Shown here: positions 5,445-42,261 of the stretch, piece by piece
Numbering within the stretch: position 1 is the first letter of the stretch
Layout: each line of letters begins with the position of its first letter
IMG/VR virus record: IMGVR_UViG_3300045988_079499
DNA: 42,466 nt
Direction: 5' to 3' (one strand)
Source: a virus
The notes under the pieces: generated by a model
Seen by the model: the letters and a program-made list of their open reading frames with translations, nothing else
What the model was told of the DNA's origin: nothing
The model's database searches: none
Translations under genes and position numbers: made by a program

Positions 5445-5448
5445 ACAC

Positions 5449-5510
5449 TTGACACCTCAATTATGAGGTGTTATACTTAATTCATAAGTTAAGAGGAGGA
5501 CGTAAAGAAC
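5449..5510 (+). promoter_or_regulatory. Early promoter-leader cassette (TTGACA-17-TATACT + TAATTCATAAGTTAAGAGGAGGA); the spacer is a 20-bp palindrome
   Basis: TTGACA is at 5449..5454 and TATACT at 5472..5477. The spacer acacctcaattatgaggtgt is an inverted repeat. Confidence 0.6.
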
Positions 5511-6243: not shown

Positions 6244-6244
6244 A

Positions 6245-6466: not shown

Positions 6467-6478
6467 GGAGGAAGATTA

Positions 6479-26108: not shown

Positions 26109-26156
26109 ATTTTAACACAAAATAGACGAAAAGGGTATGCTGTTTAAACATACCCT
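26109..26156 (-). terminator. Hairpin terminator after terL (8-bp stem agggtatg/cataccct) followed by a TGTTAAAAT element
   Basis: The - strand reads agggtatgtttaaacagcataccctttt. Confidence 0.45.
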
Positions 26157-26167
26157 CAGTTGTTGTA

Positions 26168-27940
26168 TTAGTATCCAAAACCAAACTCGCCACTATCTAG
26201 TAAGTCTTGCAATGTTGGTGCGTCATAATCGTGATATTGAGCGTCACTCATGGCATTTATTATGGCATCAAGTGAGTCAATTTTATTCCTATTTATTTGC
26301 TTATCAATCGCAACGCTATCATTGTACTCTTTAATCATTGCATTGTATGCTGCACGATTCAATAAAGGGTTATTGGTGTGCATTACTTCACCTCTACGAA
26401 TTAACTCACGCAGGGCTCTTGTTGGGGATGATAAATAATTTATTTTCTGTGGTACTTCAATTAGTTTTTTAGGGTAGGTTTTACTTAGATTAATTAAAGC
26501 CTTATCCATCATAAATGGATCATAATAAATACCAACCAATTGTAAGTCATTATAATCTATGAAATCACGTATCCAATCACACATTTCTTCTGTATCAATT
26601 AAGCCGTCTTCACGTTGGGAAATATGAATGAGGTTCATTGCCTCATACTGTCTATAGGGTATTTTATCAATTGATTGTTTATGGTCTATACCTCCAACTG
26701 AAGACACAAAACCATGTGTATCTAGTAATAACTTTTGTTCTTCTTCTATTGGGATAATCCATGAAACGGCTGTCATATCTGATGTTCTTGCTAAGTCAAT
26801 GCCAATATATACTTTTCTACCCTTAATATTATAATGATTGGGTGCTTTGACGGAATCCCACTCTTCTTTGGTTACAAAACTATCTTTAGATGATTGTACC
26901 CAAAAATTCATTTCTTTCGTTAACCAACCTGATAAATCCATTTTACCCTTGTATTCATCAAGTGAGTTACGCTTATGCTCCATCATTGAGTCATATGCTT
27001 CTGGTATTTCAAATAGTGGGTTTGATTTTATCCAATTTTCTTCATCATCTACTTCTGATAGACTATCCATTTCCCAACAAAGAGCCAAATAAGCGTCACC
27101 TTTAACCTCTTCATTAAGTAATTTTTCAACGAATGGATATTCTACAGAGTGCATAGGCCCAGTTAGGTTTTTAGTAGTTGTTGAAATTATTAGTATTAAT
27201 CCCTCTAATTGTTGAGATTGAGAGGATTCTAATACTTGAATAATTGCGTCATCTTTAGCTTCACCATATTCATCTAAAATACCGCATAATACATCTAGTC
27301 CATCAAGTGTATCAGCGTCACTTGATAGCGGTTTTACTGTTGATTCGTCACTAGCTTCAATATCATATCTACGAACAGTTGTTCTTTTTTTAACTTCTTT
27401 TGACACACTACGTAACGCAGTTAGCTGTGATTTAAGCATTCTGAAAACGATTCCTGCTTGCTCTTTTGTGTTTGCTGCTGCAACAACTTGACGACTGGCT
27501 GCTGGATTCTTACCAAACAAAAACTCATATAGTGCTATCCCTGAAACCAGTAACGACTTACCATTTTTACGTGCTAGTGAGATGTATGCTTTTCTAAAGC
27601 GTCTAGTATTATCTTTCTTTTTACGCCATCCATAGAGTAATCCAACAATAAATTTCTGAAAGTGGGCTAGTGTTGTGGTTTTGCGAGACTTAGGATCTGG
27701 AAGCATTTCAAGAAATCTAACTGGCGGTATTGCTTCCTCTGGCCTATAAATATATGGATATTTAGGGTCTTTTGAGCGTTCAATATCCTTCTGATGTCTT
27801 TCAATGGCTTTCTGTATTTTTTTACCAACTTTGATTTTAACTTTAATAGGTTTATAATAATCATCTTCTACTATATATTTACGTCCTTCAATCCATCCTG
27901 TTTCAATCAGATTGATATAATCTTGTACAAAGTCTTCCAT
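26168..27940 (-). CDS. terL: Terminase large subunit (Terminase_1 family)
   Basis: 590 aa. It has the RKNGKS Walker-A-like region and lies immediately upstream of the portal. Confidence 0.8.
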   Translation of the reverse strand: MEDFVQDYINLIETGWIEGRKYIVEDDYYKPIKVKIKVGKKIQKAIERHQKDIERSKDPKYPYIYRPEEAIPPVRFLEMLPDPKSRKTTTLAHFQKFIVGLLYGWRKKKDNTRRFRKAYISLARKNGKSLLVSGIALYEFLFGKNPAASRQVVAAANTKEQAGIVFRMLKSQLTALRSVSKEVKKRTTVRRYDIEASDESTVKPLSSDADTLDGLDVLCGILDEYGEAKDDAIIQVLESSQSQQLEGLILIISTTTKNLTGPMHSVEYPFVEKLLNEEVKGDAYLALCWEMDSLSEVDDEENWIKSNPLFEIPEAYDSMMEHKRNSLDEYKGKMDLSGWLTKEMNFWVQSSKDSFVTKEEWDSVKAPNHYNIKGRKVYIGIDLARTSDMTAVSWIIPIEEEQKLLLDTHGFVSSVGGIDHKQSIDKIPYRQYEAMNLIHISQREDGLIDTEEMCDWIRDFIDYNDLQLVGIYYDPFMMDKALINLSKTYPKKLIEVPQKINYLSSPTRALRELIRRGEVMHTNNPLLNRAAYNAMIKEYNDSVAIDKQINRNKIDSLDAIINAMSDAQYHDYDAPTLQDLLDSGEFGFGY

Positions 27941-27995
27941 TTATGTATCCTCCTTTTATACTATTCACTTACATTATAGCACAAAAAAGAACTTC

Positions 27996-28256
27996 CTAGT
28001 CTGGAAGTTCTTTTTTAAATACTTCTAAGTCTTTATATAGATAATCAAAACTTTCTTCAATTTCTGTTAGCATGTAATGTGTTTTTGGTAATCCTTGTGT
28101 AAGTCTCAATGTAATCACTTTGTTAGTATCAACATATTTTTTTAGATTGTCACATTCTGATTTGTATTCTAATAATTCTGATAATGTATAAAAGTGACTT
28201 GTTACTTCTTCTAGTTTTGTTTCGATATTTTCAAGCATTTCGTTTAATGTTGTCAT
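27996..28256 (-). CDS. Hypothetical protein (86 aa) preceded by an early-type leader
   Basis: The - strand reads tgatatacttaattcataagttaagaggaggaaacaacaATG. Confidence 0.45.
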   Translation of the reverse strand: MTTLNEMLENIETKLEEVTSHFYTLSELLEYKSECDNLKKYVDTNKVITLRLTQGLPKTHYMLTEIEESFDYLYKDLEVFKKELPD

Positions 28257-28318
28257 TGTTGTTTCCTCCTCTTAACTTATGAATTAAGTATATCATGGAG
28301 TCTATTATATTTCAACAA
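28257..28318 (-). promoter_or_regulatory. Early-type promoter-leader cassette on the late strand (TTGTTG-17-TGATATACT + TAATTCATAAGTTAAGAGGAGGA)
   Basis: The extended -10 is at 28287..28295. The leader is a match to the + strand early cassettes. Confidence 0.5.
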
Positions 28319-28346
28319 TAAAGATTAAATATTAGAATATTCTAAT

Positions 28347-28383
28347 AAAAAAAAAAGACTCCCTAGTTAGCTAGACTAGGGAG
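28347..28383 (-). terminator. Strong rho-independent terminator (9-bp stem ctccctagt/actagggag plus a T10 run)
   Basis: The - strand reads ctccctagtctagctaactagggagtcttttttttttatt. Confidence 0.8.
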
Positions 28384-28758
28384 GTGTTAGTATCTGCTAG
28401 TATCCACGCCCTACGTTAAGTGTATACTAGCTTTATGTGTGCACGTCATCAAGTAGGGTCATACTATCACACTCTGCGCCAGACACTGTGGCGAGCACTC
28501 ATTTTTAGAGAGGTGGTGTATCCTCTATCCCCGCTGACGGTTAAGGTTTCCAACTCCGTCACAGTATAACCTTAGTCATACGTTTTAGCATACTCTCGCT
28601 TGCGGTGTCACGAGAGGTGTATTAGATTCCACCTATTCATTGATTTACTTAATATGCTTTTGTCAATTGTAGTTGAAAAATTACTGTCACCCTTATTATA
28701 AAATCATACCCGTGATTTTACTTAATTAGTATACCACAACTTTTTAGTTTTGTGTAGG
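28384..28758 (-). ncRNA. Candidate structured non-coding RNA or structured 3' UTR between terS and terL (GC-rich, ORF-free, hairpin-rich)
   Basis: ~375 nt with no ORF of 60 aa or more on either strand. GC content is clearly above the surrounding ~34%. It contains several hairpins and is bounded on its 3' side by a terminator. Strand inferred from the terminator. Confidence 0.3.
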
Positions 28759-29223
28759 TTATCCCTCAAACATTTTCGCAAATGGGTCAAGTACTTCTTT
28801 CTCTTTCTCAGCTGGAAGAATAATCTTCATTCTTGAGTTGATTGTTAGTCCTAAGTCGTTGGTTGCCGTTTTAAGCTCTTTTGAATAGGAGTTCATGGCA
28901 TTAACCCAGGGGTTGGCTTTACCTGTCTCAGGATCAATAGCGCCCATCTGAGCCACCTTCTCTACTGCCTCTGCGTATAAATAATTATAGTTGCAATATC
29001 TAATGACTGTATTTACATCTAACTCACTAATAGGCAGGTCTCCCACATATGCTCCAATGCGATCCCATTCATTGAATGCTTGTGGCAATAGACCTGGTGG
29101 ATAAAAACTGAAGTCCAGCTTTTCATAATTGTAAAGTAGTTCTTCCTCCTTCTCACGCGCTTCTCGTTGTTGAGTGGTCAAGTTACCACTTTGAGCGTTT
29201 AATAGTTTTCGTGGTCTTGCCAT
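28759..29223 (-). CDS. terS: Terminase small subunit (P27 / Terminase_4 family)
   Basis: Starts MARPRKLLNAQSGNLTTQQREAREKEEELLY with RBS aaaggaggagtgataatATG. It lies downstream of the terminase-associated HNH gene. Confidence 0.7.
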   Translation of the reverse strand: MARPRKLLNAQSGNLTTQQREAREKEEELLYNYEKLDFSFYPPGLLPQAFNEWDRIGAYVGDLPISELDVNTVIRYCNYNYLYAEAVEKVAQMGAIDPETGKANPWVNAMNSYSKELKTATNDLGLTINSRMKIILPAEKEKEVLDPFAKMFEG

Positions 29224-29410: not shown

Positions 29411-29467
29411 TTATTCTACCTCCCTTACATTATTGTTAAGTTAAAAGCTAACTCCCTTATATCTATA

Positions 29468-29511
29468 ATTATATCATATAAAAAGAACCCTGTGTAGAGA
29501 AACCAGGGTTC
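29468..29511 (-). terminator. Terminator (8-bp stem gaaccctg/cagggttc plus a T-run) overlapped by an extended -10 TGATATAAT, upstream of the packaging genes
   Basis: The - strand reads gaaccctggtttctctacacagggttctttttatatgatataatt. Confidence 0.6.
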
Positions 29512-29599
29512 AATGGTGTCTAATGGGGGATAAATCATATTAGGGAAATAACATACTATATATAGTATGAGTCCTTGATTTACAACACAAGAAACCAGT

Positions 29600-29768
29600 T
29601 TTAAATCACGTTTACGAGGGGAAAAGGGCGTTTTCGAAAGTTCGTTTTTAGAATTTCGTGCGAAGAAGAGGGGGCAGCGATTAATTCGTTATAAAAAGGC
29701 GGGCGGGTAAAAACATTTTGGGTCTCCCTAAAAATAATTTTGGCTGCGCGCTTGTTGATTTAGCGCTG
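29600..29768. other. Candidate cos region: GC-rich G-runs plus repeated TTCGT/CGTTT motifs
   Basis: gagggggcagcg at 29668..29679 and aggcgggcgggt at 29697..29708. Five TTCGT(T)-type repeats lie within about 100 bp upstream. The position between HNH and terS is typical of HNH-dependent cos phages. Confidence 0.35.
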
Positions 29769-30152
29769 TTACCTACCTCTATTTTTCCAACTGTAGCTAT
29801 GTTCTTCCTTGTTGTGACACTCGTAACAGATTGACTCTAAGTTATTTAAATCAAGTCTATGTTTCCATCCATTTGGACTTCTTAATTCTATATTATGGTG
29901 AACCATATCAGCGTTGGTGTACTTGCCTTGTGCTAAGCATACCTCGCAGAGTGGTTGCTCCATTAGCTTAGCTTTACGTGCATTCCTCCATTGAGTACTA
30001 TGATAGAACTGACTGTACTTCTTGTTGTCGTCATTATATCGTACATGTTTATTGTATTGGCTATTGTTATATCCACTATGCTCCGTACAATAGCGCTCTG
30101 GTAGCGTGACATAGTTGCGGCATGAAGCCACTGCACACTTGCGTTGTGGCAT
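29769..30152 (-). CDS. HNH endonuclease (terminase-associated, zinc-ribbon type)
   Basis: CAVASCRNYVTLPERYCTEH, then ...CEVCLAQGKYTNADMVHHNIEL...NLESICYECHNKEEH. Adjacent to terS. Confidence 0.8.
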   Translation of the reverse strand: MPQRKCAVASCRNYVTLPERYCTEHSGYNNSQYNKHVRYNDDNKKYSQFYHSTQWRNARKAKLMEQPLCEVCLAQGKYTNADMVHHNIELRSPNGWKHRLDLNNLESICYECHNKEEHSYSWKNRGR

Positions 30153-31136: not shown

Positions 31137-31618
31137 ATCTCCTCCTCTTTGTTTCTATTATATCATATATAAGGGATACTGTGTGAGTTAAGTAAACCAG
31201 TTATTAGTGACAAAAACTCAGCCTAAAATGGTCATTTTGTCACTAAATTGCTTGTTTTTGTCAGCGTTTTGTCACTAATTTTGACACCTAAAAACGCTGT
31301 AACCCTTGATAAATCTACATTCTTATTTTTATAATGACAAAATGACAAAATATTATATATATTAATTAAAAAATAAAGTTACTACATTATAATGTAGTAT
31401 TACAGTATATATAAAGAGTATGGTACTTTTTTTGTCATTTTGTCATTAAACTGGTCTCTTACTTAGAGTATCAAGGAATAGAGCGATTTTAAAAAAGTCA
31501 TTTTAGTGTCATATAGTGACAAAAACGCAAAATTAGTGACATTTTTTAATCTTTTCTATTGACGTTGGTTTCTATACATGCTATACTTAGTTCATAAGAT
31601 AAAGAGGAGGAAACAATT
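31137..31618. promoter_or_regulatory. Divergent control region and putative origin: iterons TTAGTGACAAAA / TGACAAAA in both orientations around an AT-rich core with a 20-bp palindrome. It holds the - strand promoter (TGATATAAT) and the + strand early promoter (TTGACG-17-TATACT).
   Basis: TTAGTGACAAAA at 31204 (+), 31235 (rc), 31267 (rc), 31515 (+) and 31533 (+). TGACAAAATGACAAAA at 31335..31350, with its reverse complement at 31431..31446. Palindrome tactacattataatgtagta at 31380..31399. Confidence 0.6.
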
Positions 31619-31855
31619 ATGACACACGAAAAATATGACGAACTACAAAAGAAAATGGACAAGCTTTACAGCGATTTTATTGATCTAGCAGCTGACACTG
31701 AATCAGCAGGCGAAGATATGAGCAAAGTTTCAGAATGGGTAGACAACAACATTCAACCAATTATTAACTGGGTAAAAGATCATGACGCTGAAGAAAAAGT
31801 TCTAGCTGAACTACAAGATGACTATAATAAATTAAAGGAGATGTTAGCATGTTAG
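31619..31855 (+). CDS. Hypothetical early protein (78 aa)
   Basis: ORF after the conserved leader. Confidence 0.45.
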   Translation: MTHEKYDELQKKMDKLYSDFIDLAADTESAGEDMSKVSEWVDNNIQPIINWVKDHDAEEKVLAELQDDYNKLKEMLAC

Positions 31856-32175
31856 TAAAATATTATACAGAAATCATGAAAATACAACTTAGAGAGTTCA
31901 AACGACTCTCTAAGTACCATGATAAGTACGTAAGTAAAATGATGGAAATGAACGAACCAGGTAATATGTCAAATCACAACACCCAACGTTACTGGCAAAC
32001 ACATAACAAAATAGAACAATCTGAGAAAGAAATGCGTATCATAATTGAAGAGTTAAAGGAGTTGAATAACCGCTTTCATTGGCGAGATCATTTACACCAA
32101 GAACGCTTTCATTTTCTAACAAAAGACGAAGAACTATTTCAGAGAATCGTAAAGCTGATGGATATTTACAGATAG
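31849..32175 (+). CDS. Hypothetical early protein (108 aa)
   Basis: ORF. Confidence 0.4.
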   Translation: MLVKYYTEIMKIQLREFKRLSKYHDKYVSKMMEMNEPGNMSNHNTQRYWQTHNKIEQSEKEMRIIIEELKELNNRFHWRDHLHQERFHFLTKDEELFQRIVKLMDIYR

Positions 32176-32186
32176 GAGGAAACAAA

Positions 32187-32348
32187 ATGACTACATTTAT
32201 TATTTTAGCAAAAAGAAACACACAAACCATTCAATTAAGCTACTTAGCTGAAACAATGAGAGGAGCAATTGATGAATTTCGCTTGACATATCCCAAAAAG
32301 AAGTATAAAATTATTGATTGTAAGGAAGCAACTAATTACAATATGTAG
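32187..32348 (+). CDS. Hypothetical protein (53 aa)
   Basis: RBS taggaggaaacaaaATG. A shorter start is preferred to the overlapping 89-aa call. Confidence 0.35.
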   Translation: MTTFIILAKRNTQTIQLSYLAETMRGAIDEFRLTYPKKKYKIIDCKEATNYNM

Positions 32349-32411
32349 TAACAAGTAAACTAACAAACAGTACACTTAGTAGTGTAATCATAACAGAGGA
32401 GGAAAATAATA

Positions 32412-32732
32412 ATGAACAATTTAGATTTAAAAGAAGGACAAACATATATTTGTACAGACACAAAATATAGATGGTGGACTGAAGGTAAAGAATATGAGGT
32501 AGTATTAAACAGTCAAGGTGAACTATGTTTAGTTGATAATGATGGTGATCGCTGGACGCGAGATTCTTTGGAGTACGATCTATGTCAATTTAAACTAAAA
32601 TACAAATCACTAGACCTAAATAAACTAACAGTTTATCAACTAAAAGAGTACGCAGATTTACAACAAGCTCTGGAGTTAGCAAAGAGCGAATTGGATAAAT
32701 TTATTGAAAGGAGTAGACAAAATGAAATTTAA
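32412..32732 (+). CDS. Hypothetical protein (106 aa), a paralog of the C-terminal half of the next gene
   Basis: L(D/N)xKEGQT..C....WWT..KEY.VV.....L..VD.DG..W....L......KLK....DLN.LT..QL.EY is shared with 32971..33282. Confidence 0.45.
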   Translation: MNNLDLKEGQTYICTDTKYRWWTEGKEYEVVLNSQGELCLVDNDGDRWTRDSLEYDLCQFKLKYKSLDLNKLTVYQLKEYADLQQALELAKSELDKFIERSRQNEI

Positions 32733-33282
32733 AATTGGAGATACTGTAAAAGGAATCACATTCGGTACATTTGGTTATGAGACTAAAGAAGGAAAAATTG
32801 TAGAGATTAATGAGCATACCCCAACATGTATGTATGCAATCAGAAGTGACGGGTACAAATGGCACCTAAGAACAGAAACTGTAGAATTAATTGAAAAAGA
32901 ACCCATACCAGTATATATCAAAAACGAACTCAATAAGGATATTTTGCTAAATAAAAAGGAGGAAAACACAATGGCCACATTAGATTTTAAAGAAGGTCAA
33001 ACATTTGTTTGCAAACGTGATGATATAGGCTGGTGGACGAAAGATAAAGAATATAAGGTTGTTTTTGATAAGTGTCATGGACTAGTAATTGTAGATGATG
33101 ATGGATGTAAATGGGATCTACCTAACGATAAGTTGTTGAATGATATCTTCAAACTAAAAGAAAAAATATTTGATCTAAACACATTAACAACAGTACAGCT
33201 AAGAGAATACGTTGGTTTAATTGAAGATAAGGAGGATGCAGAAAACTTATTAAATGAGTTCATTGAAAGGATGAGTGAATGA
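32722..33282 (+). CDS. Two-domain protein: a unique N-terminal domain fused to a C-terminal paralog of 32412..32732
   Basis: An internal RBS plus ATG (aaaaaggaggaaaacacaATGgcc at about 32971) lies at the domain boundary with no stop codon. Confidence 0.45.
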   Translation: MKFKIGDTVKGITFGTFGYETKEGKIVEINEHTPTCMYAIRSDGYKWHLRTETVELIEKEPIPVYIKNELNKDILLNKKEENTMATLDFKEGQTFVCKRDDIGWWTKDKEYKVVFDKCHGLVIVDDDGCKWDLPNDKLLNDIFKLKEKIFDLNTLTTVQLREYVGLIEDKEDAENLLNEFIERMSE

Positions 33283-33455
33283 TGTTCACTATTACAGTAA
33301 CCAAATTTAATGGTGAAGGCGTAGAAACAATATTCTACACAGATGTTAATAAGTATAAGATTACGGATGACTATCTAATATTAGAACGTAAAGAGATTAG
33401 TAGCATTGTATATATTCAAAAAGATCAAGTGTTAGAATTTGAAGTTAATTGGTAA
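33279..33455 (+). CDS. Hypothetical protein (58 aa)
   Basis: ATG overlaps the upstream stop (TGAATGATG). Confidence 0.3.
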   Translation: MMFTITVTKFNGEGVETIFYTDVNKYKITDDYLILERKEISSIVYIQKDQVLEFEVNW

Positions 33456-33533
33456 ATATTAAAGAAAAGTATAGCACAAATGAAAAGTTTGTGCTATACT
33501 TAGTACATATCAGATGAGGGAGGACTTAATGGA

Positions 33534-35120
33534 ATGAATGAATTAACGAAAATAGACTATTCAGCACCAGTTGAAGAGTTATTACCTGTTTCAAATAAAC
33601 ACTTTCCAAGTGAGGAGTTTGTGGATTTTAATTCAGAACTAGGACGAATGTACTACGGTGGGAAAGATGGTACACAAGCAAAATTTGAAATCCAACAAGA
33701 ATTGTTTATTGATAAATTTAATCAGTTAGCCTATGTGTATGCACACCCTAACTTAAACGCTCCATATGTGTATAACGCAGACACACGTATCTGGTCTGAG
33801 GTAAACCTAGGTAGTTACAAATATGCTGATTGGTACTTTGAGAACATTTTAGCGCCAAAATTTACACCACAATTCAGAAATCCAGAATTTGGGAATGAAA
33901 TTCGTAAAGAAATGAAGAAACTAGCACCTGAGTTAGCTAATCGTTCCATGACACGTGGGGAACATGCACCATTGGGTGACAACCCTAACCCAAACATTAT
34001 TGCGTTTGAAAATGGCACATATGACTTTAAAACCAATGATATACGTGAGACCAGGTTAGAAGACTACCACACACTCCAATTACCCTATCCGTTAATTAAG
34101 ACAGATGAAACAGATGAACTATTGGCTAAACAATGGATTGACTATCTATTAAAAGATCAAGCACAGACATTATATGAGTATATTGGGTATATGTATTATA
34201 GAGAGTACAAATATCAATCAATTTTGTACCTCTTAGGTAATGGGTCAAACGGTAAGTCTTACGTAGGTGGCTTTATCATGAATAAATTAATTGGTTTCAA
34301 AAACAGCTCAGCAGTTGGTCTAGACAGCTTAGCAGATAAAAACAATCGTTTTGACAAAGCTTCATTACACCATAAATTATTGAACTTTGAAGCGGATTCA
34401 AGTGCCAACTTTGTGAAGGGTACTGAAACACTGAAAAAGCTTTCAGGAGGTCTTGACGCCGTTCATGCTGAGAAAAAGGGTAAAGATGCCTTTAGTTTTA
34501 CCAACTATGCGAAATTGATGTTCTCAATGAATGAACTACCATCCTTTAATGACCGCACCAATGGATGGTATAGACGGATTTTAATATTAAATTTCAATAC
34601 CAATCTTGATACACCAGAAGCACGTGAACGCATTAATGAGTTTAACAAACAACGTGAAGAACGTGAGTCAAAAGAGCAGCTGGGTAAATTTGCCTGGTTC
34701 TGTATTCAGCAATTCAAAAAGATTTTAGACGCTGGTACAAATGGTGAAAACCCATTCACAGAAACTGAAGATATGATTGCGTTCAAAAAAGCTTATATTG
34801 AATCCAACGATCCATCTAAAGAGTTTTTGAGTGAAGTACCTGTAATTGTGGAAGATAAAGAAGGTACTGTTAACCTAACATTATTGAAGAATATCTTTAA
34901 CGTGTACACAAAAGAGAATAATATTAACAAATCAATGAACTGGCGTACCATGAAAGAATTGCTGCTGAAGCAAGGGTTTGAAGAAAAACGTACAAGTAAA
35001 GTACGTGTACTCACTGGTCTAAAAATCGCACGTAACGGAGACAATGAATCCATTAGACCTTATTTAATGAACGCACTAGCAGGGACAGAGTACGTGAACA
35101 TTTTTAACGATGTATTGTAG
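33534..35120 (+). CDS. DNA primase-helicase, P4/D5 family (D5_N plus an SF3 helicase P-loop)
   Basis: LLGNGSNGKSYVGGFIMNKL (Walker A), then ...LLNFEADS. 528 aa. Confidence 0.7.
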   Translation: MNELTKIDYSAPVEELLPVSNKHFPSEEFVDFNSELGRMYYGGKDGTQAKFEIQQELFIDKFNQLAYVYAHPNLNAPYVYNADTRIWSEVNLGSYKYADWYFENILAPKFTPQFRNPEFGNEIRKEMKKLAPELANRSMTRGEHAPLGDNPNPNIIAFENGTYDFKTNDIRETRLEDYHTLQLPYPLIKTDETDELLAKQWIDYLLKDQAQTLYEYIGYMYYREYKYQSILYLLGNGSNGKSYVGGFIMNKLIGFKNSSAVGLDSLADKNNRFDKASLHHKLLNFEADSSANFVKGTETLKKLSGGLDAVHAEKKGKDAFSFTNYAKLMFSMNELPSFNDRTNGWYRRILILNFNTNLDTPEARERINEFNKQREERESKEQLGKFAWFCIQQFKKILDAGTNGENPFTETEDMIAFKKAYIESNDPSKEFLSEVPVIVEDKEGTVNLTLLKNIFNVYTKENNINKSMNWRTMKELLLKQGFEEKRTSKVRVLTGLKIARNGDNESIRPYLMNALAGTEYVNIFNDVL

Positions 35121-35131
35121 GAGGAAACAGA

Positions 35132-35350
35132 ATGAAAAAATATAGTATTTACACAACCAATTCATCAGAACCATTTTTGGTAGAAACTGAGGAAGATTTG
35201 ATTGATAAATATTTAAGGGCAATACAATCTGGAGACAAATCATTAGTTATTCAACATAAAAAAGATTTAATTGGAATGGGCACATATAGATACAATGTAC
35301 TACTAAACGTGAATCGCATTGTCTCAATCACAACATCAGAGAAAGTTTAA
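35132..35350 (+). CDS. Hypothetical protein (72 aa)
   Basis: ORF. Confidence 0.4.
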   Translation: MKKYSIYTTNSSEPFLVETEEDLIDKYLRAIQSGDKSLVIQHKKDLIGMGTYRYNVLLNVNRIVSITTSEKV

Positions 35351-35360
35351 TCTTTTTGAA

Positions 35361-35408
35361 AGAAAGTTGACTAAAGCAGTTGACTTTCTTTTTCTATCAT
35401 GGTATTAT
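35361..35408 (+). promoter_or_regulatory. Terminator (agaaagt/actttct plus a T-run) overlapping an early promoter (TTGACT-17-TATTAT)
   Basis: The terminator's 3' arm and T-run form the -35 (35380..35385) and spacer of the promoter. The -10 is at 35403..35408. Confidence 0.5.
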
Positions 35409-35434
35409 TAATTCATAGAGAGGAGGAAGTAATA

Positions 35435-35647
35435 ATGTATATTGCAGAGATTATAAATCCTGAAAAATGCGAATTAGAGTACAACTCAGAGACATTCAGT
35501 AGTCAGGAGGAGGCAGAAGCTTATATAAATGAAGTATGTGAAGATAGGCATGGGTTAGAGGGTGTAGTAATATCAATACTGATAGAAAAACAAAATTTTA
35601 GTGGAACTAACATTTTGACACGTGCAGACGTTGTATACCACACGTAA
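35435..35647 (+). CDS. Hypothetical acidic protein (70 aa)
   Basis: RBS agagaggaggaagtaataATG. Confidence 0.4.
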   Translation: MYIAEIINPEKCELEYNSETFSSQEEAEAYINEVCEDRHGLEGVVISILIEKQNFSGTNILTRADVVYHT

Positions 35648-35659
35648 GGAGGAAACAAA

Positions 35660-35752
35660 ATGACATTCATGATGATGGGACTATTATTTATTGGAGCAGT
35701 GATTTACGGAGCTGGAGTACTTATTCACTGGTTAGAAGAAGGAGGATATTAA
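35660..35752 (+). CDS. Tiny membrane peptide (30 aa)
   Basis: RBS aaggaggaaacaaaATG. MTFMMMGLLFIGAVIYGAGVLIHWLEEGGY. Confidence 0.3.
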   Translation: MTFMMMGLLFIGAVIYGAGVLIHWLEEGGY

Positions 35753-35753
35753 G

Positions 35754-35933
35754 ATGCATACTGGATTTAAAGACAAAAATCATATTTATGCTATGGAAGT
35801 ATTGAATGATGGTGAGTGGGTGCTGGGTATGTATGATATCCCTACAGATTTCTATAGTTTGAATAAATTATGTGATTACTACAACAGAAGAGGATATGCA
35901 AACAATCAAATTAGAATTGTGAAGGTGTTGTAA
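35754..35933 (+). CDS. Hypothetical protein (59 aa)
   Basis: RBS gaaggaggatattaagATG. Confidence 0.35.
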   Translation: MHTGFKDKNHIYAMEVLNDGEWVLGMYDIPTDFYSLNKLCDYYNRRGYANNQIRIVKVL

Positions 35934-35934
35934 G

Positions 35935-36147
35935 ATGGAGAAATTGAATTATAAAAAAGGCTTAATAACAGAAACTAATGAGCAAGTAGGTGTTGGAACG
36001 TATGCTAATAATAGTGACATTTACCTTGGATTAATAGATGATGAAGAAGATTGCGCCATTGTAACACTAACTCTGAAAGAGGCACAACGTGTAAAACGCT
36101 ATTTGGAAGATGCTATTACAACTCATATTATAAATTGGGAGGAATAA
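35935..36147 (+). CDS. Hypothetical protein (70 aa)
   Basis: ORF. Confidence 0.4.
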   Translation: MEKLNYKKGLITETNEQVGVGTYANNSDIYLGLIDDEEDCAIVTLTLKEAQRVKRYLEDAITTHIINWEE

Positions 36148-36353
36148 TGATGGAAATTTATTTGGATAATATACCAAAAATAGAGGTATTATTAGGAATA
36201 ACTAAAAAAGAATGGTTTGAAATTGATAATATTGATTTTCAAGAAGAAACATTTGATGTATTGGACGAAATGGGTCAACCGCATACGTATAATTTTATTG
36301 GTAAAACTATTAGAATTAAGGAGTTTAAAAATGAAAGAAAGTCAGTTCAGTAA
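36147..36353 (+). CDS. Hypothetical protein (68 aa)
   Basis: RBS gggaggaataATGATG. The start overlaps the upstream stop. Confidence 0.4.
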   Translation: MMEIYLDNIPKIEVLLGITKKEWFEIDNIDFQEETFDVLDEMGQPHTYNFIGKTIRIKEFKNERKSVQ

Positions 36354-36681
36354 GCTAGTTGTGAAATATCTAAAAGAAAAAGGAGCATTGGTAAACGTCA
36401 ACACCGCCAACATATTTGACAAAGTTGGGCGTTCTGATGTAGAATGTTGTTATAAAGGGCATTGGATTAGTTTAGAATTGAAGGTGGGTAACTATCAGCC
36501 AGATCCTTTACAGATCACGTACTTGCAAAAAATACGTGATGCAGGTGGCTTTGGGCTAATTCTACGTGACACACTTCAAGAACTCATGGTTTTGTTATCT
36601 TGTATTGACAATGGTATTGAAAGGCAATACAAGCAACCAGAGTTGCCAGAAATTAAAGTGGAGGAGATTACTTATGACTAG
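36331..36681 (+). CDS. VRR-NUC domain nuclease (PD-(D/E)xK)
   Basis: GRSDVECCYKGHWISLELKVGNYQPDPLQITYLQKIRDAGGFGLIL fits the D..E.K...Q pattern. It lies upstream of the SNF2 helicase. Confidence 0.55.
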   Translation: MKESQFSKLVVKYLKEKGALVNVNTANIFDKVGRSDVECCYKGHWISLELKVGNYQPDPLQITYLQKIRDAGGFGLILRDTLQELMVLLSCIDNGIERQYKQPELPEIKVEEITYD

Positions 36682-37177
36682 AGAAATTTGGAAAGATATT
36701 GAAGGATATGAAGGACTGTATCAAGTGAGTGACTTGGGAAGAGTTAAAAGAGCTACAACCGGTAGGATTTTAAAAGGTATGATTAGGGGAAGTGGTTATT
36801 TACAAGTTGATTTATCTAAACAAGGAGCTAACTCTAACAAGTATATCCATCGTTTAGTAGCTCAAGCATTCATACCAAATCCTGAAAACAAACCGCAAGT
36901 AAATCATATTGACGAAGATAAAACAAATAATATGGTTTCTAATCTTGAATGGTGTACAGCTAAAGAGAACATAAACCATGGTACGCGTATTGAAAGAGCT
37001 ATCATATCTAATCAAAAGAAAGTCAAAGCGATAGATATCGCAAATGGCGAATACAATTACTATGAATCAATAATTGAATGTGCAAGACAGTTAGATCTTA
37101 ATCAAGGCAACATTTGTAAGTGTTTAAAAGGTAAACGTAAGACATTAGGGGGATACACTTTTGAATATGCAAAATAA
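36674..37177 (+). CDS. HNH homing endonuclease (NUMOD4 + HNH_3), copy 2, inserted between the VRR-NUC and SNF2 genes
   Basis: IWKDIEGYEGLYQVSDLGRV, then ...NHIDEDKTNNMVSNLEWCTAKEN. About 55-60% identical to copy 1. Its ATG overlaps the VRR-NUC stop (ATGACTAG). Confidence 0.85.
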   Translation: MTREIWKDIEGYEGLYQVSDLGRVKRATTGRILKGMIRGSGYLQVDLSKQGANSNKYIHRLVAQAFIPNPENKPQVNHIDEDKTNNMVSNLEWCTAKENINHGTRIERAIISNQKKVKAIDIANGEYNYYESIIECARQLDLNQGNICKCLKGKRKTLGGYTFEYAK

Positions 37178-38465
37178 AATAGGTAAAATAGAACTTCTTC
37201 CACATCAAGTTGAAGCTATTAAATATTGGAAAGAAAAACCGCTTGATCTGTCAGACGTTGGGGTAGGTAAAACGTTTGCAGCACTTGGTTCCTATTCAGC
37301 TTCTGGCTGTGAGAAGTTATTAGTAATATGTTTGGCACCTAAAGTAAACGACTTTGTTGAAGATGCTGAATTAATGGATATTGAGATTACCCCACTTAAT
37401 CATGGGACAAAGAAAAATATAGAGCTTTTATCAAACTCCAAGCGGGTAGCAATCAGTTTTGAAAGTTCTTGGAGAGTAAAAGAATTATTGAAATGGGTGG
37501 ATAAGAATACTTTTATTATTATTGATGAAGCTCACAAAACGTCTGTTAGCACATCAAAAGTAACCAAGTTTGCTATGCAGTTATGTAAGAAGACTGAAAA
37601 TGTACGTTTATTGACAGCAACCCCAGTTAGCAACGGAAAATTAGAAAACTATTATCCGTTGCTATATATGATAAACGTGTTCAGAAAGCCTAAAAAAGAG
37701 TTTGAAGAGCTATTTGTCATAAAACAAATGCGTCAAATGGGAAGCGCTAGATTCCTCCAAATCACTGGCTATCGCAATGAACATTTACTTCAACAGATGA
37801 TTGACGAAGCAAGTGTGAACTATAAACGTGATAAAGGCTATTTACCACAAGATTACGTCTACAAAACGAAGAAGCCTGCAATGTACAATAAGTTGAAGAA
37901 GAATAGAATTTATAAAGATGACTTTGACAACATTGTGGAATTAGATAACGCTAGTAATCTATTTAACAGACTAAGACAGGTATCACATGGTTTTCTTGAA
38001 GGTGTACTTAAACCAGTATCCAAAGAACCGTTTGAACGTTTAGAAGCTATACTTGAGACACACCATAACGAACGTGTAGTGATTTTCTATAATTACAAAG
38101 CAGAATATTTAATGCTAAGAATGTTACTAGACAAACTAAAACGACCATATGGTGTGTACAATGGCAGTATGAAGGAACTAGATAACTTCAAACAAAATGA
38201 AAATGGTGTAGTAATAGCACAATACAAGTCCGCTTCAACTGGGATAAATGATTTTGTAATTAGTAATGTGACAGTTTTCAATAGCATGCCTCTAAGCTCT
38301 ACAGAATATTTACAAGCAAAAGGTAGAACTGACAGACATGGGCAAGAGAAAACACCACTGTATTATCATATTGTGCCAGATACACCAATTGAGAAAAAGA
38401 TCTTTGAGACAGTAACAAATGGAAAAGATTTTACAAATGAAATGATGGAGGAGAGTGTAAAATGA
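37161..38465 (+). CDS. SNF2/DEAD-like helicase
   Basis: LPHQVEAI..., the sequence DVGVGKTFAA (motif I), IIIDEAHK (DEAH box), and QAKGRTDRHGQ (motif VI). Confidence 0.7.
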   Translation: MNMQNKIGKIELLPHQVEAIKYWKEKPLDLSDVGVGKTFAALGSYSASGCEKLLVICLAPKVNDFVEDAELMDIEITPLNHGTKKNIELLSNSKRVAISFESSWRVKELLKWVDKNTFIIIDEAHKTSVSTSKVTKFAMQLCKKTENVRLLTATPVSNGKLENYYPLLYMINVFRKPKKEFEELFVIKQMRQMGSARFLQITGYRNEHLLQQMIDEASVNYKRDKGYLPQDYVYKTKKPAMYNKLKKNRIYKDDFDNIVELDNASNLFNRLRQVSHGFLEGVLKPVSKEPFERLEAILETHHNERVVIFYNYKAEYLMLRMLLDKLKRPYGVYNGSMKELDNFKQNENGVVIAQYKSASTGINDFVISNVTVFNSMPLSSTEYLQAKGRTDRHGQEKTPLYYHIVPDTPIEKKIFETVTNGKDFTNEMMEESVK

Positions 38466-38617
38466 AAAAGAGATATAAAGGCTACTTTAAGAAACCAACA
38501 TATACTACACGTGATATCATAATCAAAAAGAAAATGATGGAGTCGTTCAACTTTAAAGAGAAACCGCGTGTTGGATCATGGGTAAACACTTATAAAAAAT
38601 ATATAAATAAATTGTAG
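38462..38617 (+). CDS. Small basic protein (51 aa)
   Basis: ATGA overlap with the helicase stop. Confidence 0.3.
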   Translation: MKKRYKGYFKKPTYTTRDIIIKKKMMESFNFKEKPRVGSWVNTYKKYINKL

Positions 38618-38624
38618 AAAACAG

Positions 38625-38682
38625 TTGACACCCCTTAATTGGGGTGGTATACTTAATTTATAAGTTAAGAGGAGGAAGTTAA
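38625..38682 (+). promoter_or_regulatory. Early promoter-leader cassette (TTGACA-17-TATACT + TAATTTATAAGTTAAGAGGAGGA); the spacer contains the palindrome caccccttaattggggtg
   Basis: The -35 is at 38625..38630 and the -10 at 38648..38653. Confidence 0.6.
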
Positions 38683-39423
38683 ATGAAAGAATTAAGACTG
38701 AAAAAGAATGGTAAAGCCCCACTAGTGGCTGGAGCATTTGATGGAGAAGATTATAAACTGATTCAAACGTGGGTGCAAGAAGGTGGAAACGTTGGCACAC
38801 TCACCGGTTCAGCGAGTGGTATTGTAGTCATTGACATTGATAATCACAATGGAGTAGATGGTCTTGGCAACTTAAAAGTTTTTTTAGAAATGTATGACAT
38901 TAAGTTACCTAAGACTAAAGTAGTTAAGACTCCAAGTGGTGGACTACACTACTACTTTAAATTAGATGAGAAATACAATGAAACGCAATTCATTCAAAAC
39001 CATTCCCAACTAGAAGGCGTTGACTTTCAAACTCATGGTAGATATGTAGTAGCACCACCTAGTCAAATTGATGGTAAATATTATGAAGTAGTACGTGACG
39101 TAGAAATAGCAGAACTACCTGAGAAATGGTTAGAGATGTTCACAGATAAAACGATTACAAAAAAGAACAAAAAGAGAGAACGCAGATGGACGGCAACCTT
39201 ATTAGGTGATATAATTGCAGGTAGTGGTGAGGGTGGACGGAATATCTGGCTCACCACTCAGATTGGTAAATTATTTGCAACTGGTTTAAATCATGATGAG
39301 GTGCGTGTATGGTCTCTATATGTAAACCAGATTGGCTGTAATCCACCATTATCAGAGGATGAAGTAATGCAAACATATGAGAGCGTACGTAAGCGTGAAA
39401 TAAGAAGAATGGAGGAAGACTAA
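38683..39423 (+). CDS. Bifunctional primase-polymerase (AEP PrimPol N-terminal domain)
   Basis: GIVVIDIDNHNG (the DxD motif), SGGLHYYF, and GRYVVAPPS. Confidence 0.65.
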   Translation: MKELRLKKNGKAPLVAGAFDGEDYKLIQTWVQEGGNVGTLTGSASGIVVIDIDNHNGVDGLGNLKVFLEMYDIKLPKTKVVKTPSGGLHYYFKLDEKYNETQFIQNHSQLEGVDFQTHGRYVVAPPSQIDGKYYEVVRDVEIAELPEKWLEMFTDKTITKKNKKRERRWTATLLGDIIAGSGEGGRNIWLTTQIGKLFATGLNHDEVRVWSLYVNQIGCNPPLSEDEVMQTYESVRKREIRRMEED

Positions 39424-39527
39424 TGAATTACGATGAATTACTAACTAAATTAGACCAATTATTACCACCAAAGAATCAAACACAGAAGGTGTCTGACAAA
39501 TATTTTATTATTGCTATGGATACTTAA
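39423..39527 (+). CDS. Tiny ORF (34 aa)
   Basis: ATG overlaps the PrimPol stop. Speculative. Confidence 0.2.
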   Translation: MNYDELLTKLDQLLPPKNQTQKVSDKYFIIAMDT

Positions 39528-39630
39528 CAGCGTTAAACAATGTTAATATTATTTCAAAAGAAGACTACCTAAACGCTCACAGGTATGTGACCCATAGTAT
39601 GAGTAAAAATAGGAACAAGGAGGAATAATA

Positions 39631-39831
39631 ATGGATAAGCGATTATTTAGCACAGAGTTTACAAATGGATACTGCGCGACAGTATTCAGCCAATCAAGAT
39701 TTGACTTAAAATATTATGTAGAGGTTTTTCATGTTAATGAACCACAAGATACTCATAGAGTTGATTTTCATACAGCGCGCGAGGTTTTTGGATATTTATC
39801 CGATATTCAAAATTATAAACAAAAAGACTAG
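39631..39831 (+). CDS. Hypothetical protein (66 aa)
   Basis: RBS aaggaggaataataATG. Confidence 0.4.
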   Translation: MDKRLFSTEFTNGYCATVFSQSRFDLKYYVEVFHVNEPQDTHRVDFHTAREVFGYLSDIQNYKQKD

Positions 39832-39847
39832 TCAATTGACTAGTCTT
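39824..39847. promoter_or_regulatory. Perfect 24-bp palindrome aagactagtcaattgactagtctt
   Basis: Exact dyad overlapping the stop codon of the upstream ORF. No T-run follows it on the + strand. Confidence 0.5.
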
Positions 39848-39909
39848 AACGAGAGGAGGGAGGAGGAATATCCCTATAATTAATTATAGCATAAAATAAA
39901 AGTTTTGTG

Positions 39910-39938
39910 TTGACAAGTAAGACACTATATGATATTAT
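39910..39938 (+). promoter_or_regulatory. Early promoter TTGACA-17-TGaTATTAT
   Basis: The -35 is at 39910..39915. The extended -10 spans 39930..39938 (TG at 39930..39931, hexamer TATTAT at 39933..39938). Confidence 0.5.
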
Positions 39939-39969
39939 AAATATATAAACAAAGAGAGGATTTGATATA

Positions 39970-40209
39970 ATGACTACAGTTGAAGAATTAGAAAATACAG
40001 CACGTTACAAAACCAACTCAGGAAAACAATTATTTGATATTTTTGAAGACGACCTATTGACATACGAGCAGGTAACGGGTTTCTACTTAGGTAATACAAT
40101 TAAATATTTAAAACGTTATAAACAAAAGAATGGAGTTGAAGATCTGAAAAAAGTGAAAGTTTATGTAGATCAATTAATTAAATTGGAGGAAAAACATAAT
40201 GAGATTTGA
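39970..40209 (+). CDS. DUF3310-like phage protein (putative)
   Basis: LLTYEQVTGFYLGNTIKYLKRY, then ...DLKKVKVYVDQLI. Confidence 0.35.
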   Translation: MTTVEELENTARYKTNSGKQLFDIFEDDLLTYEQVTGFYLGNTIKYLKRYKQKNGVEDLKKVKVYVDQLIKLEEKHNEI

Positions 40210-40669
40210 ACCATTAAATGAGCCTTACGATATGTATGCCATAACAGATGAAGGTCATGTGTTTCATTTAGACAAAGAACGATATGAAACTGAACTAGTT
40301 GATCCAAAGAATGGAAAAATGTATGTAGTACTTGAAGGTTCACATACAAAGTCACGTAAATTCTACGTCTCTCAATTAGTAGCAGACATGTTTGTTAAAA
40401 ACGAGCATAACTTAGGGTACTTATATTTTAAAGATGGTAACGTACAAAACAGCCACCACACTAATATTGGTTACGCCATTAATCCAAAAGAAGGGGTAGA
40501 ACGTGTGGCACGTCCCTTCAGAAAGAAAGTAGAGCCAAAAAGGCATGCATTAATTGTAGCTATTGGAAAAGCGTGTGAGCAAAAAAACTGGAAAGAAGCC
40601 AATACGCTTGGTAGAGAACTTTGGGAATTAGAAGGAGCAAAATACGCAGACAGAAATAAATTAGTATAG
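40199..40669 (+). CDS. HNH_3-type endonuclease-like protein, copy 3 (divergent)
   Basis: YFKDGNVQNSHHTNIGY resembles the H-DGN..NN...NL motif. The N-terminal YAITDEGHVFHL region is NUMOD4-like. Confidence 0.4.
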   Translation: MRFEPLNEPYDMYAITDEGHVFHLDKERYETELVDPKNGKMYVVLEGSHTKSRKFYVSQLVADMFVKNEHNLGYLYFKDGNVQNSHHTNIGYAINPKEGVERVARPFRKKVEPKRHALIVAIGKACEQKNWKEANTLGRELWELEGAKYADRNKLV

Positions 40670-40683
40670 TTGGAGGCAAACAA

Positions 40684-41439
40684 ATGTCAGAATTTGAATT
40701 TGATGTACATTACACAGGAAGTAAGGGTAACAGTGTCTCAATTTATTATGAGAATATGGGGTTCCTAATTGATATTGGAAAGCCATACAAATACATTGAG
40801 CCATATTTATATGATAAACAATTTGTATTGATTACGCATAAGCACCAGGATCACCTTGTATATACAACATATAAAAAGATTAGAGAAAACTTTCCCCACA
40901 TTAAAATATTATCTAACGAAACTGTTAACAATGAACTAATAAAACGCAAACTTAGTAGTGTAGACATAACATTCAAAGATGATTTCCAGTTTAAAATTGG
41001 AGATGTAAAATTTACAACACTTCAAAATTATCATGGTGCAGCTGAAGACTACACAGAAACACATGGTTTTATCCTAGAGAGTCCTTTGCAAAACTTAATC
41101 TATGCCACTGATTTGAGTACTTTAATAGATTATGAAACTTATCTATTGACAAATGAGTTAAAACTTGATATTATTCTTTTAGAAGCTAATTATGACCCAC
41201 AAGTCATTGGCTTATCAGAGTATATGAAAATTCACAGTGGATATGATACATTTAACAACGGATCATACCGTCACTTGAGTACTGTAGATAGAGAGGAGTT
41301 TGTTACTAAGTTCAAGAAACCAGACGCTGTAGATGTTGAGCTTCACATTTCAGAGCGGTATCGTAGTTTTGACGGATTGGTTAGATTAGAAAAAGGAAAA
41401 ATTACTCAAAAAGATGTTGACAATTATTTAAAGAGATGA
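40684..41439 (+). CDS. Metallo-beta-lactamase-fold hydrolase
   Basis: VLITHKHQDHL matches the HxHxDH motif. 251 aa. Confidence 0.55.
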   Translation: MSEFEFDVHYTGSKGNSVSIYYENMGFLIDIGKPYKYIEPYLYDKQFVLITHKHQDHLVYTTYKKIRENFPHIKILSNETVNNELIKRKLSSVDITFKDDFQFKIGDVKFTTLQNYHGAAEDYTETHGFILESPLQNLIYATDLSTLIDYETYLLTNELKLDIILLEANYDPQVIGLSEYMKIHSGYDTFNNGSYRHLSTVDREEFVTKFKKPDAVDVELHISERYRSFDGLVRLEKGKITQKDVDNYLKR

Positions 41440-41468
41440 TATAGTTAATATATAGAGGAGGAAGAATA

Positions 41469-41648
41469 ATGAACTTAAAATTAGATATAACGTGGAGAGA
41501 ATCACAAGTAGTATTAGAAACAATAAATGCATGGATATCAAAATATGGGTATGACAATATGTCAGACGAAATGAAAGAACTTACAGCCAAATGTCTTGCA
41601 TTTGACAAACAAATATTAGATGAATTTGGAGTGGAGGAAATCAAATGA
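41469..41648 (+). CDS. Hypothetical protein (59 aa)
   Basis: RBS agaggaggaagaataATG. Confidence 0.35.
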   Translation: MNLKLDITWRESQVVLETINAWISKYGYDNMSDEMKELTAKCLAFDKQILDEFGVEEIK

Positions 41649-41872
41649 AATACCAATATGGAGACTTAGTTAGATTCACAAATAATTATGGAATGCACGC
41701 AGCACAAGACGATGAAGGCACTGTACAACATGTGGACAAGTTTGGTAACATCTTAGTATTAGTAGAGTCAGGAGAGTTTGCAGCACGCTTTGAGGAAGTA
41801 CGTGAGGAAGATATTGAACTGATTGATCGTTTAAGTGATGAGGATCTAGAGTTACTGAAGGAGGAGCTATAG
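41645..41872 (+). CDS. Hypothetical acidic protein (75 aa)
   Basis: ATGA overlap. Confidence 0.4.
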   Translation: MKYQYGDLVRFTNNYGMHAAQDDEGTVQHVDKFGNILVLVESGEFAARFEEVREEDIELIDRLSDEDLELLKEEL

Positions 41873-41873
41873 T

Positions 41874-42104
41874 ATGAAAAAATACAATGTAAAGGAATTA
41901 GCATATTTATTCCAGGATAACGGACGAATAGAAGTTATTTTTGAAGATGAGCCAGATATATTTCCTTATTATGAAAATATCTATACTATAGAAGAAATTA
42001 TTGATAGTTTTGGAGAAAGAATGATAACGTGGATTTCACTTTATGCGGATGATGGTGATCAACACTTAATGATTGAATTGGAGGGAAAAAAGAATGAACT
42101 ATAA
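41874..42104 (+). CDS. Hypothetical protein (76 aa)
   Basis: ORF. Confidence 0.4.
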   Translation: MKKYNVKELAYLFQDNGRIEVIFEDEPDIFPYYENIYTIEEIIDSFGERMITWISLYADDGDQHLMIELEGKKNEL

Positions 42105-42261
42105 AACACTGTTGAAATTAGACTATGGATACACTGAAAATCAGTTGTTTGATGTGATTGAGAAATATGTGTGGCTTTTAAAAATCAACTACACAATCGC
42201 AGAAATCTTTGCTGTAGAATACAAACGTCTCAAGTTAGAGGATGAAGAACATGGCATTTGA
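42073..42261 (+). CDS. Hypothetical protein (62 aa)
   Basis: ORF. Confidence 0.35.
   Translation: MNWREKRMNYKTLLKLDYGYTENQLFDVIEKYVWLLKINYTIAEIFAVEYKRLKLEDEEHGI

Follow-up and report, generated by a model that had tools for sequence, protein, structure and literature searches.

Morons, a frequent type of addition to phage genomes, are extra pieces of DNA between genes which are adjacent in close relatives. They have been described for the phages HK97 and HK022 (Juhala et al. 2000, as summarised in Cumby et al. 2012, PMC3594210), and in the lytic siphovirus SPP1 morons interrupt the packaging/portal module (PMC6316719). Another known system is that of the PeSL (promoter-early stem-loop) cassettes in the T4-type phages (Arbiol et al. 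2010, PMC2839356; Comeau et al. 2014, PMC4122927). With respect to transcription, SPP1 has early promoters (PE1-5) of sigma-A consensus and a late promoter, PL1, with a canonical -10 and an atypical -35, and its late transcription needs an early phage factor (PMC6316719). Finally, RNAs which may be structured and which lie upstream of a family of large terminases are reported, without detail, in a large survey (PMC10690425).

Here we analyze the terS-terL region of IMGVR_UViG_3300045988_079499, a stretch of 42,466 nt which we call the window. Between the two genes lies a small unit with a promoter/leader cassette and an 86-aa ORF (ORF86). Like the morons of HK97/HK022 and SPP1 this unit is extra DNA between genes adjacent in close relatives, and like other morons it has its own promoter and terminator, a deviant GC content and a short ORFan and is located inside the late (packaging) module. 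Unlike the classical morons it is found in a phage which, to judge from those genes that were seen, is strictly lytic, so that expression from a repressed prophage is not applicable, and its promoter is not foreign but the phage group's own replication-arm cassette. We therefore describe the unit as most likely a moron built on the replication-arm promoter/leader of the phage group itself, a reading which derives from the sequence comparisons detailed below.

With the PeSL cassettes the cassette shares a repeated early promoter motif of sigma-70 consensus with an AT-rich upstream region, the Shine-Dalgarno sequence at the 3' end, the position upstream of ORFans and a link with indels between close relatives; at the copies at 5448, 35379 and 38626 there is also a hairpin in or over the -35/spacer (-13.5 to -14.9 kcal/mol). 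At the - strand copy the hairpin is a separate terminator which is part of the neighbouring RNA unit; its stem ends 43 nt upstream of the -35, and its T-run is 31 nt upstream. The differences are that the phages are Firmicutes siphophages and not T4-type myoviruses, that there are about 4-7 copies per genome in contrast to about 50, that the shared block here spans the -10 to the Shine-Dalgarno sequence with 28-32 nt identical, and that the indel junctions are at terminator T-runs and not at cassette copies, as recombination between the motifs would have it. Since the phage type differs and the junctions are at T-runs, the cassette would work like a PeSL without being a member of the PeSL family. 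As in SPP1, the replication genes stand behind sigma-A consensus promoters, the -10 in front of the late genes is canonical and the -35 either atypical or missing, and the late clusters are bounded by stem-loop terminators; in SPP1, however, timing and factor dependence have been measured, whereas the classes described here are sequence classes.

Genome organization

Judged by its sequence the window is a ~42-kb Enterococcus siphophage genome of the IME-EFm1/IME-EFm5/9184/KEN22 group. Its terS-terL region matches 88 phage records, all of them Enterococcus phages, with a query coverage of at most 76% in each. The genome has two arms. The + arm (31619-42466 and 1-7174, + strand) codes for DNA polymerase, primase, helicase, primase-polymerase, nucleotide kinases, a Dam methyltransferase and several HNH endonucleases. 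On the - arm (31136-7252, - strand) follow in this order small ORFs and an HNH endonuclease (29769-30152), terS (28759-29223), the 86-aa ORF (27996-28256), terL (26168-27940; 590 aa, phrog_9, E = 6e-137), portal, and the structural and lysis genes. ARAGORN found neither a tRNA nor a tmRNA. Upstream of terS there is a 358-nt gap at 29411-29768 (- strand) between the HNH endonuclease gene and a 60-aa ORF; the cos site is probably in this gap, because the linear record of phage 9184 begins 260 nt upstream of the homologous ORF.

The promoter/leader cassette

The first-pass annotation had proposed that the cassette of the + strand early genes is also present on the - strand, where it would drive the 86-aa ORF and terL. 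The proposed string, TTGTTG-17 nt-TGATATACT-TAATTCATAAGTTAAGAGGAGGA, is indeed there as written (28318-28264, - strand), and it is immediately followed by the 86-aa ORF, whose ATG is at 28256. TTGTTG itself had to be rejected as the -35 because the spacer to the TATACT hexamer is 20 nt. The likely -35 hexamer is TTGAAA (28310-28315), which has five of six matches to TTGACA and is separated by 17 nt from the extended -10 TGaTATACT (28287-28295; TG at -15/-14, TATACT as -10). With 10 of 12 consensus matches, a 17-nt spacer and the TG, this is the make-up of a sigma-A/sigma-70 extended -10 promoter. The conserved leader TAATTCATAAGTTAAGAGGAGGA (28264-28286) contains the Shine-Dalgarno sequence AGGAGG (28270-28265) 8 nt before the ATG; transcription is predicted to start near A28280, and on folding the leader RNA is unstructured (dG 0). 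The region upstream of the -35 (28316-28346) is 87% A+T and holds a perfect 16-bp palindrome, ATTAGAATATTCTAAT (28346-28331), which is kept, less perfectly, in the other carriers of the unit. Possibly this AT-rich palindromic region is a UP element or an operator; a second copy of the palindrome as candidate operator does not occur elsewhere in the window.

For comparison there were eight other unit-bearing sequences, five of them distinct, and a ninth locus which is cut upstream of the -35. Across the carriers TTGAAA, the 17-nt spacing, TG, TATACT and the entire leader are invariant, whereas the spacer is variable at many positions, a pattern which is expected of a working promoter. The fact that ORF86 is accompanied by the cassette in all carriers could also be explained if the cassette were a scar without function, left by the recombination which brought ORF86 from a replication arm. 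A scar would decay, however, and the -35, its spacing, the TG, the -10 and the Shine-Dalgarno sequence are kept while the neighbouring positions drift; moreover ORF86 is under purifying selection. We therefore regard a scar as very improbable.

An insertion between two terminator T-runs

The unit extends over ~370 nt (28346-27983), from the AT-rich palindromic region through promoter, leader and 86-aa ORF to a terminator of its own. In the phages 9184, IME-EFm5 and KEN22 there is neither the cassette nor the 86-aa ORF, and the upstream terminator (...CTAGTCTAGCTAACTAG... and T-run) is directly followed by aTGcTATAAT and terL. In EF36P1 and the metagenomic relatives L005-L010 this slot is occupied by the complete unit, and the terL promoter which comes after it is the same. 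The alignment accordingly shows an indel of ~370-385 nt. The window shares the extra DNA with EF36P1, L005, L008 and L010, while KEN22, IME-EFm5 and 9184 are without it, and both junctions are at TCTTTTTT(A/G)T, i.e. at terminator T-runs. The GC content of the unit is 25.4%; the genome has 35.2%, terS 41.1% and terL 34.7%. Being extra DNA in a slot between neighbouring genes, with a promoter and a terminator of its own at the sequence level and with a deviating base composition, the unit fits the definition of a moron.

The slot is bounded on the terS side by an intrinsic terminator at 28347-28383 (- strand), which had already been noted as strong and is indeed real: its stem CTCCCTAGT/ACTAGGGAG (28383-28359) is followed by TC and T10, its folding energy is -14 kcal/mol (z = -3.4), it is kept with compensatory changes in 16 relatives and it is annotated as a terminator in phage 9184. 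With this terminator the terS-distal structured RNA unit ends on its 3' side. The intrinsic terminator of the ORF86 unit itself (27983-28016, - strand) has the form A6-GAACTTCC-AGACTA-GGAAGTTC-T6 and contains the stop codon of the 86-aa ORF at the junction of loop and 3' arm. It reaches -20.6 kcal/mol with the A/U extension (z = -5.3) and is kept in all carriers. The core GAACUUCC-N6-GGAAGUUC has -10.3 kcal/mol and is followed by U6, and with six U and a core of this strength some read-through into terL is plausible. Weak Rfam matches at this position were rejected as terminator-only matches.

Directly after the T-run of the unit follows the extended -10 promoter of terL, TGTGCTATAAT (27973-27983, - strand; TRTG and a perfect TATAAT, no -35), and then the Shine-Dalgarno sequence AAGGAGG (27955-27949) and the ATG of terL at 27940. 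This promoter is conserved in every relative, with or without the insertion, and also in the Efquatrovirus EfaCPT1. Downstream of terL the previously noted hairpin (26132-26156) is present as a terminator-like structure of -14.2 kcal/mol at 26131-26157 (- strand), followed by an extended -10, TGTTAAAAT, at 26117-26109.

These signals bear on the earlier proposal that the cassette drives terL. In this proposal ORF86 and terL are transcribed as a bicistronic RNA from the cassette, and terL and the downstream genes up to the post-terL terminator are early and uncoupled from terS. In its favour, cassette and terL share a strand and the cassette comes first, a strong terminator separates terS and terL, and the intervening terminator with its moderate core could leak. 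This intervening terminator (28016-27983), which had gone unnoticed, overlaps however with the ORF86 stop codon in every carrier, the terL promoter is conserved with or without the cassette, and the cassette-less phages have identical terL signals, which means that the expression of terL is independent of the cassette. A bicistronic ORF86-terL transcript which makes terL early is thus unlikely, and we do not uphold the claim that the cassette drives terL. The related claim that terL is decoupled from terS is correct in so far as a promoter, a structured RNA supported by covariation and a terminator stand between the two genes; but this uncoupling is found in all relatives and in EfaCPT1, so that it characterizes the phage group as a whole and is not an effect of the cassette.

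We consider it probable that the cassette is the promoter (of host sigma-A type), leader and strong ribosome-binding site of a self-contained moron. The unit sits at a natural boundary of transcription units, between the terminator of the structured RNA and the extended -10 promoter of terL. Unmodified host RNA polymerase would transcribe ORF86 together with the replication-arm genes, presumably early; the terminator within the unit would stop most ORF86 transcripts at 27983-27988, and TGTGCTATAAT would be the main promoter for terL, just as it is in relatives without the unit.

Promoter classes of the two arms

Both strands were scanned for TG-n-TAnnnT with at least five of six matches to TATAAT, and two classes can be distinguished. 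Class A has TTGAC(A/G/T) at 17 nt, usually with a TAATTCATA-type leader. It is found at six intergenic sites on the + strand (5448, 31559, 35379, 38626, 39909 and 41416) and at only one on the - arm, which is the cassette at 28315. Class B is without a TTGACA-type -35; often there is ACACA at this place, or a terminator hairpin and U-run directly before TRTG-n-TATAAT. This class has 12 intergenic sites on the - arm and three on the + arm (918, 33492 and possibly 3123). The ratio of class A to class B is 6:3 on the + arm versus 1:12 on the - arm (Fisher p = 0.0066), and in EfaCPT1, whose genome is likewise laid out in two arms, the three cassette copies are all in the replication arm and none is in the structural arm. 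From its sequence class and its position, and by analogy with SPP1, it appears reasonable to regard the cassette as early.

The two classes may on the other hand be without temporal meaning. The extended -10 promoters of both arms would then be ordinary sigma-A promoters which are always active, and the cassette would be just the strongest generic signal for an acquired gene. Both classes carry TG-n-TATAaT elements, they are mixed on the + arm, and L005 joins a class-B -35/-10 to a cassette-like leader, which shows that class and leader are not strictly linked. In addition a PHROGs scan of 20 + strand and 9 - strand ORFs did not recognize a sigma factor or late activator. A perfect TRTG-TATAAT extended -10 can be used by sigma-A without a -35; since the - arm elements are of this type, two sequence classes need not be two temporal classes. 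Nevertheless, the TTGACA-type class shows a strong arm bias (p = 0.007), the bias recurs in EfaCPT1, and in SPP1 it is the early promoters that have the sigma-A consensus and the late PL1 that has an atypical -35, late transcription being dependent on an early phage factor (PMC6316719). Promoters without any timing are hence possible but doubtful. A literature search found no transcriptomes or promoter mapping for this Enterococcus phage group; VPE25 we take to be a different, larger phage.

In the course of the scan further regularities were seen. A hairpin and U-run followed within a few bases by TRTG-n-TATAAT is found at 29476, 27981, 26117, 20770, 20138, 15580 and 12378 on the - strand and at 35379 on the + strand; with at least seven such terminator-promoter composites on the - arm, the structural arm resembles a chain of terminate-and-restart units. 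Many of the promoters which lack a TTGACA-type -35, namely those at 918(+), 20770(-), 21442(-), 24165(-), 28736(-), 29476(-), 31165(-) and 39891(-), have ACACA or CACA in its place, with 17 nt to the -10. In the terS-distal promoters ACACA/CACA pairs with TRTG to form a palindrome CACAAAA...TTTTGTG, which could be the site of a phage factor.

Cassette copies and the invariant leader

That the cassette is the same as the one in front of + strand genes is borne out by the copies in the window. The 32-nt block from the extended -10 to the Shine-Dalgarno sequence (TGATATACTTAATTCATAAGTTAAGAGGAGGA; TGATATACT...GGAGGA) occurs three times at up to two mismatches, at 5469-5500 (+), 28264-28295 (-) and 38645-38676 (+), and zero times in 100 dinucleotide-preserving shuffles. 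The first + strand copy (5448-5500; TTGACA-17-TGtTATACT and leader, with a hairpin in the spacer) precedes the Dam methyltransferase gene and the second (38626-38676; TTGACA-17-TGgTATACT and leader, again with a hairpin in the spacer) a primase/polymerase-like gene. A diverged copy (31559-31610, +; TTGACG-17-TGcTATACT and TAGTTCATAAGATAAAGAGGAGGA, diverged block at 31579-31599) precedes the first gene of the + arm, and IME-EFm5 has an exact cassette ahead of the homologous 78-aa gene. In total the window has three near-identical and about four diverged copies.

The Dam methyltransferase gene behind the copy at 5448 is interrupted. The region extends over 5511-6245 (+), the ORF stops at 5930 after 139 aa, covering Pfam positions 1-88 of 253, and beyond an A8 run (5907-5914) the sequence goes on in a different frame with the DPPY motif (gacccaccatac, about 6006). 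The relative L025 has an intact gene of 242 aa. Possible explanations of the interruption are a frameshift, a pseudogene and an assembly error.

Outside of the window the cassette is found at 317 places in 143 phage records, 138 of which are Enterococcus phages. The exact 28-mer is present in 20 IMG/VR contigs with differing upstream spacers and downstream genes, among the latter genes for helical proteins of 62, 68 and 78 aa, Dam methyltransferase and others. The exact 22-nt leader does not occur in 185,579 species genomes of bacteria and archaea and is therefore a phage signal which was not taken from a host gene. As the cassette is a replication-arm module of this phage and of more than 140 Enterococcus siphophage records, ORF86 is probably transcribed together with the replication-arm genes.

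In 36 distinct Enterococcus phage contexts, a sample whose conservation figure is inflated because it was gathered by similarity to the cassette, the leader (22-28 nt) is invariant and the spacer, the upstream region and the stretch from the Shine-Dalgarno sequence to the ATG vary. One may ask whether the leader from the -10 to the Shine-Dalgarno sequence is itself a regulatory target, either an operator over the +1 (there is an imperfect palindrome, TTAATTCATAAGTTAA) or a site on the mRNA for a phage nuclease or translational repressor. All leader-bearing units including ORF86 could then be shut off jointly, which would be compatible with the unit being a moron. The T4 proteins RegB and RegA control early mRNAs through their ribosome-binding regions, and, as a pure analogy, the shared sequence around the Shine-Dalgarno sequence could permit a collective shut-off here. 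The invariance of the leader while its flanks vary, its retention across carriers in which ORF86 has diverged to 76% identity and its absence from host genomes are in line with such a role. On the other hand, beside the bias of the sample, concerted evolution or recombination between the copies would be equally able to keep them identical, and neither a candidate regulator nor a RegB- or RegA-like protein was identified. A regulatory leader therefore seems rather unlikely to us.

The 86-aa protein

ORF86 is an acidic ORFan (pI 4.7, net charge about -8), for which AlphaFold predicts a three-helix bundle (pLDDT 82). Only 19 homologues, with 76-100% identity, are present in a set of about 5.8 billion clustered sequences, and all but one (95 aa) have a length of 86 aa. 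A tblastn search of 50,697 phage records found ORF86 only in EF36P1-3, and at every place examined the homologues are located only in the terS-terL slot. No PHROGs or Pfam family was assigned. Phage_P2_GpU was rejected with 20.6 bits against a cut-off of 27.5. Foldseek searches of PDB and BFVD with the model returned generic three-helix bundles only (best E = 0.5), and BLASTP against all ORFs of the window and the other cassette-driven proteins gave no paralogue. From its size, its charge and its presumed early expression we would guess at a role in host takeover or anti-defence.

A candidate structured RNA between terS and the unit

The region between terS and the upstream terminator (28384-28758, - strand) is free of ORFs. 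It has its own promoter, TACACA-17-TGgTATACT (28756-28728), and ends in the strong terminator extending to 28347. With 40% GC the RNA region (28347-28758) is GC-enriched, and its 3' domain has 48%. The region was also seen in the relatives L001-L010, L017, L026, L027, L034, L055, L056, L065, L069, L075, L079, L082 and L089. All relatives have a class-B promoter directly after the terS stop, followed by 229-597 nt without ORFs and a strong terminator. On the sequence level the ORF-free stretch is a mosaic which is modular across the relatives. For the 3' domain of ~165 nt, for which 16 distinct sequences were aligned, a pseudoknotted model is 95% paired compared to 26-40% in slid controls, and ten pairs are changed on both sides compared to 0-1 in the controls. 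A covariance model found one full-length copy per fetched IME-EFm1/EFm5-like locus spanning the terS-terL gap. L005/L021 and L008 gave weaker matches to part of the model, and L089 has a second match, which is also weaker. There was no match in the fetched Efquatrovirus-type segments, which may not include the terS-terL gaps and leave out that of EfaCPT1. In EfaCPT1 (L213) this gap (40592-40923 and 1-26) is 358 nt long and non-coding, and its sequence is unrelated to the RNA of the window, but the design is shared: a promoter right after terS, two terminator-like hairpins, TGcTATAAT and terL.

Rfam searches at the gathering and E <= 10 thresholds returned no family for the cassette region or the upstream RNA, and among the 185,579 species genomes of bacteria and archaea none has the exact RNA motif. 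In IMG/VR a 16-mer and a 14-mer of the RNA gave mostly chance matches from unrelated environments, the usable ones being only ~42-kb Enterococcus-phage-like contigs.

Some further observations concern single modules of the RNA. L089 (IMGVR_UViG_3300029751_000004, 77.6 kb) has two copies of the 3' domain (23-188 and 289-444) about 100 nt apart, one of which is nearly identical to that of the window and the other diverged. A hairpin module at ~28545-28580 (- strand), also found in L001, L004, L005 and L007, has a conserved 15-nt loop, AGUUGGAAACCUUAR, and a stem which covaries (GACGG/CCGTC in the window and L004, AGGAG/CTCCT in L001, GTGAG/CTCAC in L007). By eye a related loop, UUGGAAACUGAA, is seen in another RNA module.

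The carriers of the unit insert a promoter and a second terminator between the terminator of the RNA and terL and yet persist in several lineages. Therefore the RNA is unlikely to be an obligatory cis-acting leader of terL; a separate RNA or a 3'UTR of terS is more likely. We consider the region a candidate for a new phage structured RNA. One could go further and suppose that the invariant block from the -10 to the Shine-Dalgarno sequence, present in more than 140 Enterococcus phage records, is a common regulatory target and more than a good promoter, through which a whole class of transcription units is switched jointly and which accessory genes like ORF86 join when they acquire the block. 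As a linked possibility, the unit at 28758-28347, which fills the terS-terL gap across the phage group, would be an undescribed modular pseudoknotted RNA controlling the onset of packaging and late gene expression. We would not expect these linked possibilities to hold.

Implications

The transcription map of the packaging region is corrected by this analysis: the cassette would place an accessory ORFan, and not terL, under early-type control. The neighbouring structured RNA is a more unusual object than the cassette and merits a follow-up of its own. The promoter/leader/ribosome-binding block, which is identical across many Enterococcus phages, could serve as an expression signal for the engineering of therapeutic phages and is a possible marker for presumed early or accessory genes. 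For the biology of these phages, carriers and non-carriers of the unit represent a natural experiment on the role of the 86-aa acidic protein, for example in host takeover or anti-defence.
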